From Candidatus Babelota bacterium (GTDB lineage Bacteria > Babelota > Babeliae > Babelales > Vermiphilaceae), in assembly GCA_003963225.1 (NCBI GenBank), contig RXKB01000001.1:105957-169956 (forward strand): DNA of 64,000 nucleotides, in the 5' to 3' direction. Under the pieces are notes generated by a model. It had not been told where the DNA came from and searched no databases. It saw nothing but the letters and a program-made list of their open reading frames with translations. Within the stretch, counting starts at the first letter, position 1, and every line of letters starts with the position of its first letter. Positions 5,707 through 35,762 of the stretch are shown here, in pieces. A program made the position numbers and the translations under genes.

Positions 5707-5766
5707 CAGATATTCCTCTAACTATATTGGAAATACATAAATGAAATGGAAATTCCACCCAATTTA

Positions 5767-5796
5767 CGTAAGTCCTTGATAGCATTGAGGTCTACG
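5767..5796. repeat. 30-bp direct repeat, copy 2
   Basis: Perfect copy 90 bp from copy 1. It contains the stop codon of 5792..6271. Confidence 0.95.
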
Positions 5797-6271
5797 AATG
5801 GGAATTACCCAGATACGCTTCGCTTTGCTCCATTTCCCAATCCAATTGTGGGACAGGAAGGGCTTCAAGGCTATTGGAGGCACTGATGGAGAAGGGGCAG
5901 ACATGGATGCTATGTGGCTCCTCCGAGAAATGGATGTACACGAATTGAATGGCCTTGGGGTGTTCGTGCCTGGCCATATGGTAGGCTCTCAAGAGGTAAA
6001 GGCTGTTGGTGACGATGATGTGGCAGTCACCCAAGAGCTGTCCTCTGGCGGCCTGTGGCATCTGTTGACCTGTCAGGGTGTTCTCAGGATACCACTCAGG
6101 GGTTTCCCCTGCCCTGAACAACCTCCAAGGTCTGGATTTGACCAGATCAGGCCTATTGGAATAGACGATCTTCAGCATCCCACGATAGGAATGCAAGGGA
6201 GGAAGACCCTCAAGAGAGGGATGTATCTCTTGTACTATAGGGGAAGAGGGGGAGACAGGGGTATCGGACAT
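5792..6271 (-). CDS. hypothetical protein (159 aa)
   Basis: ORF preferred over the antisense ORF 5798..6295. It is flanked by repeat motifs. Confidence 0.6.
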   Translation of the reverse strand: MSDTPVSPSSPIVQEIHPSLEGLPPLHSYRGMLKIVYSNRPDLVKSRPWRLFRAGETPEWYPENTLTGQQMPQAARGQLLGDCHIIVTNSLYLLRAYHMARHEHPKAIQFVYIHFSEEPHSIHVCPFSISASNSLEALPVPQLDWEMEQSEAYLGNSHS

Positions 6272-32918: not shown

Positions 32919-33204
32919 ATGTCGTTGCACTAGGATCCTCGTCATCTCCTTCTTCTGTGATTTCAATATCACTGTGTTGTTCTGGTACAGGGTTTGATAT
33001 GTTCTGCTCCAGGTTAGACTCCAGCGTATCGAGTACCATCCCCGTGAATTTCAGTACCCCCAGACGGGTTACTGGATTGTCAGCTTGAACAAAGGTCTCG
33101 AATTGCCCCTGTTCATTGACTGTGACGAGGAAGTAACCTGTCGTAAATTCTCCCAGTTGTGAGAGAAACGATTGTGGAAGCTTGAAAGAATTAGGGCGCT
33201 CCAT
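32917..33204 (-). CDS. hypothetical acidic protein (95 aa)
   Basis: ORF; last gene of the leftward block. Confidence 0.6.
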   Translation of the reverse strand: MERPNSFKLPQSFLSQLGEFTTGYFLVTVNEQGQFETFVQADNPVTRLGVLKFTGMVLDTLESNLEQNISNPVPEQHSDIEITEEGDDEDPSATT

Positions 33205-33230
33205 ACACCTATGTTATCAACCACCTATCT

Positions 33231-33267
33231 AAAAAAAAAGAGGAATGTGGCCGTAGCCACACCCCTC
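33231..33267 (-). terminator. rho-independent terminator
   Basis: Minus strand: GAGGGGTGTGGC-TACG-GCCACATTCCTC followed by T9. Confidence 0.8.
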
Positions 33268-33272
33268 TTGAT

Positions 33273-33704
33273 CTACTTCTTCTCCGGTTCGACGACCCGC
33301 ACCTCCTTCACGCGATAACGGGTATTGCCGTCAAGTGGGGAGGAAAACCCCTTCTCCTCGTAGACGACGCGCACGGTCCTGTTGTGGTCCATGGCGTTCT
33401 GGATGGCGTCGACCGGGTCTTTCCGATCCTTGTCGACCGTAAACTCCCACACATTGGCGGTGAGCTGGCTGCCTCCTTCGGAGGTGACGGTATTGCGCAT
33501 GCCGCCCATCAGCAATTCACCCTCCCAGGTCTTGAAGCTCACGCCTTTCAGGGAGAACTTGGTGATGACACCAACACGACTCCCTTCGGAGTAGGTGGAG
33601 CAGCCCCGGATGCCTCCGAGAACCATTGTGAGGAGAATGCCGACGATGGCGACACAGACGAGGAGTTCAATCAAGGTGAACCCGCGGTTAATTCGACGTT
33701 TCAT
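33273..33704 (-). CDS. prepilin-type N-terminal cleavage/methylation domain protein (pilin/pseudopilin-like)
   Basis: MKRRINRG|FTLIELLVCVAIVGILL is the class III signal peptide motif. The ORF is trimmed to that Met. Confidence 0.7.
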   Translation of the reverse strand: MKRRINRGFTLIELLVCVAIVGILLTMVLGGIRGCSTYSEGSRVGVITKFSLKGVSFKTWEGELLMGGMRNTVTSEGGSQLTANVWEFTVDKDRKDPVDAIQNAMDHNRTVRVVYEEKGFSSPLDGNTRYRVKEVRVVEPEKK

Positions 33705-35760
33705 GGATGAGTTGTGCTGCAATTGCGAGGCCGTCTTCTTTCGTATTGAATTCGCCGGCCAATTGTTTTTCCATGAGCGCGTCAAGTAGTTGCCCCATCT
33801 TAGGGCCACTGGGATACTTGAACCGCTCTATCAAGTCTCGCCCAAGAACAAGAGGCTTCGGCTTTTCGTGCTGAACACCCGCACGAGCTGCCTCGCTCTC
33901 GAACCAGGCTATCATCTGTTCGTCAGGTGGCATGGTAGGCCCACGCCCTCCTTGGTCGTATCGCAGCATTTTCACCAGCTGCTTGATAGGGACGCGTAGC
34001 GCCAACCTCCGGAAGGCCTGCAGATCTGCACCATTGCGATAGAACGAAGATGGTGTCATATGGGCCCGGCAAACTGCCAGAACCTTTTCCACCAGCTTTG
34101 TTTCATTCGTAAGGCGCGCCAGGAACCGTTCTGCCGGTCCGGTGTGATGCTCGTGATTGTGGTTGGTCCAGTGAGGCACTGGGTTCTTTTTCGTTGGGCC
34201 AAACACAGCCGTCTCAGGCTTACCCAAGTCGTGGCAAAGCGCAGCCAACCCAAGCACAAGCTTTTCCTCGTCGTCCTCGAATGTACCTTGCGTAAAGGCC
34301 TCCACCACCAACGCCGTGTGCTCGAAGACGTCACCTATTTTCACTTGATACTGCTGCGTGGAGGCGATACTATTGGGTAAATGAACGAACTGCTCGTCTC
34401 CTACGAGACCAAACTCGAAGAAACACAGTATCTTACCATCAACGGAGTAACGGCTAGAATCTATACCCATAACCGTTACCCCTATGTTTGCTGGCCAGGT
34501 AAGAAAGGCATTGGCATTCACCGGCTGATCATGGAACTCCACCTGGGACGAAAACTCAGCCGGGAAGAGCATGTCCATCACATAGACGGCAACAAAACCA
34601 ACAATGCTTTGAGCAACCTGGAAGTCGTTAACGGCCGTGCGCATAATGCTCTCCACACACGGCTTCGTAATCTCAAACATGACCCGTCCACCTTTTCGTG
34701 TCGGCATTGTTGCACCAGCGAGCGGCCACACAAAGCTCTTGGCTTGTGCGAAAACTGCTGGAGTAAACAACGCCGAAAGAAAAGAACGCAAAGACCCTGC
34801 CGTATCTGCGGCACCGAGACCGTGAAGAGGCAGATTTATGACGGCCTCTGTGCTTGTTGCGCTAGAGACAGGTTCCAGCGCTGTTTTGATTGTGGGCGTA
34901 CCGTCGACCAACTCCCCGGGCCACGAGAGACTAAGCTGTCTCCCGTCGGGTTGTGTCGTGCCTGTCGAGGAAAACGTCGACGTGGCACGCTTTAGCTCCC
35001 ATCCCTCAGGGTGCCATTTGTGATAATGCGGGCTGCCGATGAGCGCAAACAGCTCAGGATAGAAACGCTCCAACCAGCCGATGTCTCGGAGGAAATAAAG
35101 CGCCTTCCGGATATGCCGGCCCTTGAGCAGGAGCTTCTTCCACTCCTCGAACAGGCGTTCTTTCGGCAAGTTGTCTTGCGTCAGCTCTCGACACATTTCC
35201 AGACAGCGAGGTGTCGGGGTAAGATCGAAGCGTGCGATGAATTGCATGCCCCGTAGAACGCGCAACGAATCTTCCGCAAAGCGATCGGAAACGACATTGA
35301 GCACCTTGTCCCGAATATCTCGCCGGCCATTAAACGGATCGCTCCACTCCTCCGTTAGCGGATTGTATGAGATGGCGTTGATGGTGTAATCCCGCCTCGC
35401 CGCAGCCTCTTCCACCGTCATGGTGGGGTCAGCGTGAACAGCAAAGTCAGAATGCCCCACACCAGTCTTACGCTCACGTCTCGGCACCGATACATCGATC
35501 GGTAAGCCGTGTAATTTGATGATGCCGAAGGCTTTGCCGACGACATCAATTCGCCAACGCTGCGAAAGAACTGCTTCCAGGAAATTCGGCTCAATACCAA
35601 ACACCTCAATATCCACGTCTTTGAGATCAACGGGAATACCGGCGCGTTCAGCAATAAACAGATCCCGGGCGGCACCACCTACAACGTAAGCAGTACCGCC
35701 CAGGCGACGAATTTCCATGCACAGCTCAATCACGGTAGGCCACAACACCATAGTATCCAT
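33688..35760 (-). CDS. cca: CCA-adding enzyme (tRNA nucleotidyltransferase with HD domain) carrying a 223-codon in-frame insertion
   Basis: The head motif is GGAARD ... DVDIEV ... RRDYTINA. The HD-domain motif HPEG|DVFEHT is split by the insertion. LCHDLGKP lies downstream. Confidence 0.8.
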   Translation of the reverse strand: MDTMVLWPTVIELCMEIRRLGGTAYVVGGAARDLFIAERAGIPVDLKDVDIEVFGIEPNFLEAVLSQRWRIDVVGKAFGIIKLHGLPIDVSVPRRERKTGVGHSDFAVHADPTMTVEEAAARRDYTINAISYNPLTEEWSDPFNGRRDIRDKVLNVVSDRFAEDSLRVLRGMQFIARFDLTPTPRCLEMCRELTQDNLPKERLFEEWKKLLLKGRHIRKALYFLRDIGWLERFYPELFALIGSPHYHKWHPEGWELKRATSTFSSTGTTQPDGRQLSLSWPGELVDGTPTIKTALEPVSSATSTEAVINLPLHGLGAADTAGSLRSFLSALFTPAVFAQAKSFVWPLAGATMPTRKGGRVMFEITKPCVESIMRTAVNDFQVAQSIVGFVAVYVMDMLFPAEFSSQVEFHDQPVNANAFLTWPANIGVTVMGIDSSRYSVDGKILCFFEFGLVGDEQFVHLPNSIASTQQYQVKIGDVFEHTALVVEAFTQGTFEDDEEKLVLGLAALCHDLGKPETAVFGPTKKNPVPHWTNHNHEHHTGPAERFLARLTNETKLVEKVLAVCRAHMTPSSFYRNGADLQAFRRLALRVPIKQLVKMLRYDQGGRGPTMPPDEQMIAWFESEAARAGVQHEKPKPLVLGRDLIERFKYPSGPKMGQLLDALMEKQLAGEFNTKEDGLAIAAQLIHETSN
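34345..34373 (+). promoter_or_regulatory. sigma70-like promoter for the HNH gene (near-leaderless)
   Basis: TTGATA, 17-nt spacer, TACTAT, ending 7 nt before the ATG at 34381. Confidence 0.45.
34381..34995 (+). CDS. HNH homing endonuclease (HNH_3-like) with a Cys-rich C-terminal region
   Basis: HVHHIDGNKTNNALSNLEVVNGRAHN, followed by several CxxC pairs. Confidence 0.8.
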   Translation: MNELLVSYETKLEETQYLTINGVTARIYTHNRYPYVCWPGKKGIGIHRLIMELHLGRKLSREEHVHHIDGNKTNNALSNLEVVNGRAHNALHTRLRNLKHDPSTFSCRHCCTSERPHKALGLCENCWSKQRRKKRTQRPCRICGTETVKRQIYDGLCACCARDRFQRCFDCGRTVDQLPGPRETKLSPVGLCRACRGKRRRGTL

Positions 35761-35762
35761 GA

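Follow-up and report, generated by a model that had tools for sequence, protein, structure and literature searches.

An HNH endonuclease gene nested antisense, and without host-frame stops, in the cca gene of a phage-like contig

The accepted view is that homing endonuclease genes persist in conserved genes under the cover of self-splicing introns or of inteins. In a 64,000-nucleotide stretch of contig RXKB01000001.1 (assembly GCA_003963225.1, Candidatus Babelota bacterium, positions 105,957 to 169,956 of the forward strand), hereafter called the window, the cca gene for the CCA-adding enzyme is interrupted in frame by a cassette that consists almost entirely of an HNH endonuclease gene on the opposite strand, and the cca reading frame stays open across it. 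The closest described system is the ShiLan domain, a "hidden HNH endonuclease" within gp65, a mycobacteriophage DNA methylase (Arsenault, Gosselin & Gogarten 2025, PMC11855218). Like the cca cassette, it is an in-frame insertion of about 200 amino acids at a conserved site of a phage gene, has a length that is a multiple of three, contains no host-frame stops and shows no intron or intein features. Nearly all of the insert is again an HNH open reading frame (ORF) with zinc-finger-like flanks, read in another frame; the distribution is sporadic and homing-like, the insert is predicted to loop out of the host protein and leaderless expression has been proposed. The two differ in that the HNH gene of ShiLan lies on the same strand as its host, in the +3 frame, and starts about 18 nucleotides into the insert, whereas that of the cca cassette lies on the opposite strand, is codon-aligned with its host and starts 48 nucleotides from the other end, behind a promoter-like leader. 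The host is a methylase there and cca here. Furthermore, the cca family occurs in phages and on bacterial chromosomes and spans 34-62% GC (guanine plus cytosine), which permits a statistical test of stop avoidance. Antisense cases are not mentioned in the ShiLan paper (PMC11855218). A tblastn search of 50,697 GenBank phage records with the HNH protein returned no Mycobacterium phage match at E up to 1e-6, and ShiLan is compared here by description; the matches in those records were partial and to free-standing HNH genes such as phiKZ gp296.

Non-canonical inteins with an antisense homing endonuclease (Gorbalenya 1998; Gogarten 2002), as outlined in the preprint that cites them (bioRxiv 10.1101/2025.01.02.630785), also lie in frame in a conserved host gene whose frame is open across the antisense ORF. 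By the same outline, they carry a Hint splicing domain, are removed from the protein and encode LAGLIDADG or VSR-like endonucleases, whereas the cca cassette has no splicing domain, no nucleophile at its junctions and an HNH_3 endonuclease. In our literature searches, no antisense, splicing-free HNH gene nested in cca or elsewhere was found described.

Homing without introns is known from the seg and mob genes of phage T4, and mobE in nrdA of Aeromonas phage Aeh1 is reportedly a case of "genes in pieces", described by Friedrich et al. in 2007. These elements resemble the cca cassette as promoter-bearing HNH or GIY-YIG cassettes without intron or intein that have a conserved target and co-converted flanking markers, and the likeness extends to two relatives treated below, a split cca (L118) and a free-standing copy (L019). 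They differ in their effect on the host gene, which is either left intact by an intergenic cassette or broken into two ORFs, whereas cca stays continuous. The nearest solved HNH structure is that of I-HmuI (PDB 1U3E; profile E = 0.007), an HNH nicking endonuclease from a group I intron of Bacillus phage SPO1 that also belongs to Pfam HNH_3. The similarity is weak and covers about 50 residues (the motif aligns to I-HmuI residues 46-94), and the C-terminal DNA-binding part differs, the enzyme in the window having CxxC pairs there; I-HmuI is encoded in the sense direction inside a self-splicing intron, whereas the cca HNH gene is antisense and unspliced. Rickettsia palindromic elements, which Ogata et al. 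are said to have described in 2000 as inserted in frame into protein genes, are likewise selfish DNA carried as a translated, tolerated insertion of a host protein, but these repeats of 100-150 bp are non-coding and lack an endonuclease gene. Finally, an engineered "overlapping, alternate-frame insertion" (bioRxiv 10.1101/2024.11.07.622342) ties the fate of an inserted gene to selection on its host gene by nesting, as would the cca cassette, but is synthetic.

The stop-free frame across the cassette

A homologue search with the cca protein returned two length classes, of about 460-470 and 680-720 amino acids, and in the protein alignment the insert of the long class sits between WHPEG and DVxxHT. 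Compared with an uninterrupted allele, L178 (91% amino acid identity), the window and its close relatives L179 and L180 carry 669 extra bases, or 223 codons, and the HPEG-DVFEHT residues are all retained around them. Thus, the first-pass annotation, which had placed the split of cca exactly within HPEG-D with no residue lost, and had delimited the insert and the opposite-strand HNH ORF as in Table 1, was right on each of these points. The empty site of L178 reads ...TGGCACCCGGAAGGAGATGTGTTCGAGCATAC..., and its DNA aligns as CACCCGGAAGGA before and GATGTGTTCGAG after the insertion point. In the window, the insert is preceded by the codons CAC CCT GAG GGA and followed by GAC GTC TTC; because a GGN codon precedes both junctions, the boundary is ambiguous by 1-3 nucleotides. 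The HNH ORF matches Pfam HNH_3 (PF13392; E = 1.7e-10) with 40.8 bits, above the cutoff of 24.8, and has matches to 11 PHROG families, 10 of which are annotated as HNH (E = 3e-15).

The HNH and cca frames are codon-aligned on opposite strands. This is, by the genetic code, the only overlapping phase in which each host stop corresponds to one codon of the HNH gene that has synonymous alternatives (TTA, CTA or TCA). Among the 20 Leu and 8 Ser codons of the HNH ORF in the window, these three do not occur, and the codon counts agree with the earlier proposal that the cca frame stays open only through their absence. Calculated from the codon usage of the long ORFs of the window, the chance of such an open frame is 0.022, or 0.038 when conditioned on the Leu and Ser counts; the previous rough estimate of a few percent was therefore correct for the window alone.

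Because gene callers preferentially report read-through genes, we sampled relatives through the HNH protein, by tblastn and independently of cca gene calls, scanning GTDB genomes, IMG/VR and JGI metagenomes once each. This yielded about 38 loci that hold full-length HNH relatives (41-54% amino acid identity). All 33 full-length relatives nested in cca, including L118, whose cca is split, contain no TTA, CTA or TCA in about 200 codons each, at GC contents from 0.34 to 0.62. With partial contigs and loci reached through cca proteins added, at least 36 loci share the insertion site and the read-through architecture, on large phage-like contigs and on Pyrinomonadaceae/Blastocatellia chromosomes, among them the complete Pyrinomonadaceae chromosomes OZ252004.1 and OZ244585.1. 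For 12 of the first 13 loci, reading antisense to the HNH gene gives a cca frame of 679-769 amino acids in which HPEG and GDV flank the insert. The free-standing copy L019, with three such codons, is the sole exception among the full-length relatives, and in unrelated HNH_3 genes with a GC content under 0.5, counts of 2-18 are usual.

We then calculated the chance of an open frame locus by locus from the codon usage of the flanking genes. It was about 7e-9 for each of L112, L117 and L121, 3e-5 for L102 and 2e-5 for L119, and reached 0.17-0.28 in the high-GC loci L001, L002, L003, L005 and L009. The low-GC loci are not one recent clone, since their HNH proteins share 41-54% identity. In L112 and L117, the HNH gene uses TTA or CTA for none of its 15 and 12 Leu codons, respectively, as against 30 of 45 and 32 of 49 in the flanking cca. 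A recent high-GC donor as the source of this codon usage was excluded, because the GC content at third codon positions of the HNH gene equals that of the host in both loci (0.25-0.27). Across the HNH family, the stop-free pattern is thus far beyond chance.

Protein databases gave a consistent picture. The translated insert matched 41 clusters at 50% identity in a library of 1.84 billion proteins, and most of these are 636-788 amino acids long, their length and match position being consistent with a read-through cca. Three candidates for broken alleles starting inside the insert (P0277, P0281 and P0286) were rejected as contig-truncated, their frames being open to the contig start; the same holds for L184 (GC 0.36). 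The first-pass annotation had proposed to look for antisense-frame stops in close relatives, and the finding survives this check, with L179 and L180 both open.

Divergence among the window, L179 and L180 is dominated by the third codon position of cca on both sides of the insert, with 28, 18 and 88 differences at positions 1, 2 and 3 upstream and 17, 10 and 86 downstream; therefore, the part of cca behind the insert is constrained and would still be translated in frame. Residues of the nucleotidyltransferase and HD domains (H250, H481, H510, D511, H536, H567, D602 and others) are invariant in 90 occupied and empty sequences. These two observations refute the suggestion that the gene was freshly inactivated. 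Inside the insert, it is the third position of the HNH frame that varies most (52 differences versus 30 and 19), and amino acid identity is 81-88% in the HNH frame versus 65-74% in the cca frame. The HNH protein aligns as one uninterrupted full-length match in every locus, and H66, H67, D69, G70, N74, N75, N79, H88, N89, H92 and the paired Cys columns are invariant in the family alignment, in keeping with the catalytic His/Asn pattern of the beta-beta-alpha-metal motif. Both cca and the HNH gene are under purifying selection. In contrast, divergence at 4-fold degenerate sites in 32 close pairs, with Leu and Ser excluded, is the same in the HNH gene as in the flanking cca (0.424 vs 0.412), so that no amino-acid-level constraint on the peptide encoded by the insert in the cca frame is detectable. 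In multiple alignments, the identity of this peptide (0.27-0.60) is always the lowest of the three measures. Selection on the inserted peptide acts only to keep it free of stops and in phase.

Outside the HNH ORF, the insert holds only 54 nucleotides (48 + 6), and the length of the 48-nucleotide leader is kept in most loci. Read in the cca frame, the leader gives ...PNSIASTQQYQVKIG. A scan recovered the promoter-like sequence that had been pointed out earlier, TTGATA (34345-34350) and TACTAT (34368-34373) with a 17-nucleotide spacer ending 7 nucleotides ahead of the ATG; it matches 9 of 12 consensus positions, which is not significant alone. Phage-like copies have a TTGAAA or TTGATA box, a 17-nucleotide spacer and a TAnnnT box 6-7 nucleotides ahead of the ATG, and the leader of L111 reads TTGAAA-17-TATAAT followed by 7 nucleotides to the ATG. 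Judged from this spacing, such a box would yield a leaderless or nearly leaderless HNH mRNA. In several bacterial copies, the HNH ORF extends into the antisense of the upstream cca sequence.

Table 1. Coordinates of cca, the inserted cassette and their parts in the window
Feature	Coordinates	Strand	Basis or content
cca, CCA-adding enzyme with HD domain, insert included	33688..35760	-	690-amino-acid ORF; Pfam PolyA_pol, PolyA_pol_RNAbd, HD
cca part 1: head, neck and first HD-domain helix, up to ...HYHKWHPEG	35002..35760	-	alignment with uninterrupted homologues
30-nucleotide co-conversion-like tract adjoining the insert	35002..35031	-	common to occupied alleles, unlike the empty allele
Inserted cassette, 669 bp = 223 codons of the cca frame	34333..35001	.	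gap versus empty allele L178
HNH_3 endonuclease ORF, 204 amino acids, I-HmuI-like HNH core and C-terminal CxxC pairs	34381..34995	+	Pfam, PHROGs
Cassette leader, 48 nucleotides	34333..34380	+	junction comparison across loci
Promoter-like TTGATA-17-TACTAT	34345..34373	+	scan; ends 7 nucleotides ahead of the HNH ATG
cca part 2: DVFEHT..., remaining HD domain (LCHDLGKP) and tail	33688..34332	-	alignment

Explanations for the open frame

Of the four readings that the first-pass annotation had offered, tolerance of a 223-residue loop by the enzyme is the one that these results support. We put at roughly 0.75 the probability that a homing-type HNH cassette persists by being stop-free on its reverse strand, while cca yields a single protein that tolerates an excursion of about 223 residues. 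A cassette of the free-standing type, comprising a 48-nucleotide leader with its own promoter and an ORF that ends 6 nucleotides short of the far junction, would have been copied antisense into the codons for the HPEG/DV turn of the HD domain, and would be removed neither from the RNA nor from the protein. Given its multiple-of-three length and codon-aligned antisense phase, only TTA, CTA and TCA in the HNH gene would make host stops; the endonuclease would lose nothing by having synonymous codons in their place, and carriers of TTA, CTA or TCA would be purged by selection on the host gene. Then, cca would be made as a single polypeptide whose excursion, largely disordered or poorly folded, leaves and rejoins the HD domain at a surface turn, with the enzyme remaining functional. 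The endonuclease would be expressed from its own transcript of the opposite strand and presumably cuts empty alleles at the WHPEGDV-coding sequence, after which repair would copy the cassette with a short flank. As a side effect, host selection against frameshifts would keep insertions and deletions from degrading the endonuclease ORF. From the sequence comparisons, we infer that the insert is translated and that the 690-residue enzyme retains its CCA-adding and HD activities; use of the promoter, as well as cleavage by the HNH enzyme with homing, would likewise be expected.

Persistence in this manner would be a third survival route for a homing endonuclease gene, one without splicing chemistry that takes the codon-aligned antisense phase, drops three codons and lets the host read through. 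It would also explain the use of this phase: its stops are avoidable by synonymous changes alone, and therefore all cca copies and the four other nested cases described below use it. It further predicts that host selection protects a selfish gene from frameshift decay. The span of 34-62% GC over phages and chromosomes makes for an unusually clean statistical proof that the frame is kept by selection, and this is the first strong statistical evidence of selection maintaining the host frame of such an element, which the ShiLan study could only suggest. Among 5.8 billion predicted proteins, no more than 5 close relatives of the HNH protein turned up, while tblastn of contigs finds dozens, because gene callers keep the long host ORF and drop the one nested in it. 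As a result, such elements systematically escape detection, and their host proteins are annotated about 220 residues too long. The family also offers a natural test bed, both for the size of insertion that an HD domain can bear and for engineered designs with overlapping genes.

Several observations weigh against this reading. The partial copy L122 has one TTA/CTA/TCA codon and thus one host-frame stop, 18 nucleotides from the contig end; on the contig of P0276, cca is represented by two ORFs that differ in frame; and in L118, cca is truly split, its second half having its own Shine-Dalgarno sequence and ATG. The promoter match is weak (9/12), and the Pyrinomonadaceae copies lack it, an AAGGAG-like box taking its place. 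That the insert is translated and the 690-residue enzyme active is drawn from evolutionary evidence only. Furthermore, residues 320-485, within the insert, have pLDDT scores (predicted local distance difference test) of 65-85 and regular secondary structure in the full-length AlphaFold2 model, and this part of the insert might be structured to some extent or even serve a purpose. Among the phage alleles, the three closest have a 4-fold divergence of 0.28-0.34 in the HNH gene versus 0.32-0.46 in the flanking cca (n about 60), and in distant pairs identical codons at conserved residues occur at 1.20 times expectation in the HNH gene versus 1.03 in the flanking cca. The codon excess is ambiguous between horizontal transfer and dual constraint; either it or the low 4-fold divergence could reflect weak dual constraint rather than transfer, and both may reflect the transfer history of the cassette.

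The last three of these observations would fit a protein domain encoded by the cca frame of the insert, so that two selected proteins occupy complementary, codon-aligned strands. Bidirectional coding of this kind would make the active HNH enzyme and a structured insertion domain used by the CCA-adding enzyme an extant sense/antisense gene pair of the Rodin-Ohno type, and the domain might then modulate the HD phosphohydrolase site or tRNA binding. We modeled the 690-residue protein with AlphaFold2 from an alignment of 90 sequences (mean pLDDT 85, flanks above 90), and the best PDB matches of the full-length model were CCA-adding enzymes. While residues 320-485 are predicted as described above, residues 263-320 of the insert score below 50 and are disordered, and the insert modeled alone has a mean pLDDT of 46.7 and no fold match in PDB by Foldseek (best E = 1.1). 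No Pfam family was found in the 223-residue insert at E up to 0.1. The models thus picture the insert as a long flexible linker with a poorly defined unit that would exit and re-enter the HD domain at the HPEG/DV turn. The confidence for the insert in the full-length model can, in our view, be inflated, as covariation in the HNH protein carries over, mirrored, to the alignment of the antisense frame. Together with the equal 4-fold divergence in the 32 close pairs and the uniformly lowest identity of the cca-frame peptide, these results make a functional domain improbable.

An intron of a new kind, self-spliced or host-spliced and bearing the antisense endonuclease gene, would account for the highly conserved insertion site, the sporadic distribution and the co-conversion-like flanks, as seen in mobile introns. 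However, Rfam searches of 33500-36000 on both strands gave no match at E up to 10, and among 18 related loci, searched at the gathering score, no intron family was found, the only matches being the tRNAs of L112 and one transfer-messenger RNA (tmRNA) match in L018. The 54 nucleotides outside the ORF leave little room, and the search for inverted and direct repeats in 34200-35150 returned only short, chance-like pairs, with no terminal repeats, no junction-spanning helices of note and, apart from the shared GGN codon, no target-site duplication. The host sequence upstream of the insert ends in GAR GGN with N being A, C or G, and in all four registers the nucleotide before the 5' junction is A, C or G, so that the U that precedes a group I intron is absent. 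The insert begins with UGGGAG or UGGUCA and lacks the GUGYG of group II introns, and the cassette ORF is an HNH gene and not a reverse transcriptase. The earlier statement that the cassette is not a classical group I intron is hence supported and extends to group II. If the insert were spliced out, neither an open host frame nor a multiple-of-three length would be needed, yet both are strictly kept. We consider a spliced RNA very unlikely, and removal by an unrecognized mechanism, as had also been suggested, found no support and would leave the open frame unexplained.

Removal from the protein, by a non-canonical intein or by proteolysis with the halves staying associated, would by its nature need the open frame. 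Inteins with antisense endonucleases do exist (bioRxiv 10.1101/2025.01.02.630785), and disorder is predicted for the first 60 or so residues of the insert, which would be within reach of proteases. On the other hand, no Hint domain was found in the 223-residue insert (Pfam, E up to 0.1), and its model has no known fold. At all loci examined, the insert starts with an invariant Trp and ends with a variable residue followed by Gly, and the next host residue is Asp; there is therefore no Cys/Ser/Thr nucleophile and no His-Asn. These features bear out the previous argument that the cassette cannot be an intein, and we regard protein-level removal in general as highly doubtful.

Translation of cca as two separate halves, the second starting in or at the end of the insert, would make the read-through irrelevant. 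L118 is arranged exactly so, and the HD turn is a plausible split point. In L118, part 1 stops after WHPEESYP, and part 2 is preceded by AAGGAAAG and 6 nucleotides before its ATG (MGNLEIHT...), the three segments occupying three different frames; read-through is therefore not the only viable state. In the window, however, there is neither a Met codon nor a Shine-Dalgarno sequence near the second junction (...QQYQVKIGDVFEHT), and an open frame and a multiple-of-three length, which two halves would not need, are kept in at least 36 loci. Accordingly, the split enzyme suggested earlier holds for L118 but fails for the window, which lacks a start signal at the junction, and as a general explanation it has little to recommend it.

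Chance, by which the cassette disrupts a recently inactivated and dying gene, is almost certainly wrong: for the window taken alone, the probability of an open frame (0.02-0.04) is only mildly low, and the frames of high-GC relatives would often be open by accident, but the 33 of 33 nested full-length relatives without a host-frame stop (one further partial copy has one), the five lineages of local GC about 0.34-0.48 with chances of 1e-5 to 1e-8 each, the strong purifying selection on cca downstream of the insert between occupied alleles, the invariant HD and nucleotidyltransferase residues and the presence of TTA/CTA/TCA codons in the free-standing L019 all speak against it.

Mobility and distribution of the cassette

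Empty alleles occur beside occupied ones at 80-91% identity, both in a phage clade and in a Pyrinomonadaceae clade. The empty L178 and the occupied L179 are 92% identical in nucleotide sequence, and L179 and the window 82%. Even so, the 30-nucleotide tract at 35002-35031 has 11 mismatches between L178 and L179, as against 0-5 in other bins, while the occupied alleles differ in it by only 2; a tract shared in this way would be expected for co-conversion. Ahead of HPEG, the occupied alleles encode PHYHKW and their empty relatives QQHPQW or PQHPQW, and the PHYHKW tract could have been acquired as a marker by co-conversion or could be an alteration that shields the site against cleavage.

The identities of the HNH gene and of its host are correlated (r = 0.845), and therefore much of the inheritance is vertical. 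At 30-45% host identity, HNH identity stays at about 53%. L101 compared with L100 and L108 has an HNH identity of 0.72-0.74 at a host identity of 0.38-0.43, which indicates transfer between divergent cca genes. Taken together, the sporadic presence with intact empty alleles and the flank and incongruence signals suggest homing-type behavior.

At L019 (2143-4802), the free-standing HNH gene (47% identity) lies between RNA-ligase-like and HD-domain/kinase genes on the same strand, and may represent a lifestyle of the element that is ancestral or alternative. Near its start, the HD gene in L019 contains YHAEGSVGVHT, which resembles the cca target motif. In L118 (2900-5471), the nucleotidyltransferase motif of cca additionally contains a real intein, inserted after RDFTFN, beginning with C, ending with HN and followed by S.

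Other nested genes and genomic surroundings

Antisense nesting with host read-through is not confined to cca. HNH_3 genes (Pfam E 4e-7 to 2e-10) also lie codon-aligned antisense in long host frames at L082 (2857-3330), L093 (2731-3339), L012 (2869-3582) and L157 (1647-2438), all on the + strand, and these hosts, of at least 1713-2065 amino acids, are open across the whole locus. The host frames have Pfam matches to ddrB-ParB (L093 and L157), helicase domains (L093), ART-PolyVal and PBECR5 (L012) and GGDEF (L082), and the hosts in L093, L012 and L157 look like polyvalent proteins. Searches for insert-free homologues of the L157 host (tblastn, GenBank phages) and of the L082 host (viral contigs) returned only the query itself. 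In L066 (2833-3504, +) and L075 (2830-3486, +), HNH_3 genes with HTH lie antisense in terminase large-subunit ORFs of 809 and 833 amino acids, respectively, in an antisense phase that differs from the cca cases. The L066 terminase host has a Hint_2 match, and this locus is probably an intein with an antisense HNH gene. Antisense nesting of HNH_3 genes, seen also in these polyvalent-protein and terminase ORFs, may be common.

The surroundings of cca in the window look, by gene content, like a large phage. PHROG matches in 17426-62823 include a DNA polymerase family, a DnaB-like helicase, a head-decoration family and the "RNA-binding protein" phrog_850, and the window also holds a 1948-amino-acid ORF without matches. 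Megablast of 33000-37500 against GenBank phages gave no match. No tRNA gene was found within the 64 kb, though cca is encoded there. Relatives sit on contigs that measure 211-436 kb. Three tRNA genes flank the occupied cca in the low-GC locus L112 (580-4371), and on the 436-kb viral contig of L018 an Rfam tmRNA family match (5731-5873) lies near cca. The cca protein of L179 has 721 amino acids, and its end is fused to the last 30 or so residues of the downstream pilin-like gene (...SSPLDGNTRYRVKEVRVIEPEKK; 2100-2225, P0001 C-terminus), most of which would therefore have been deleted there. In the window, this pilin-like neighbor is an intact ORF of 178 amino acids (33273-33809, - strand) with an N_methyl prepilin motif (E = 2e-9).

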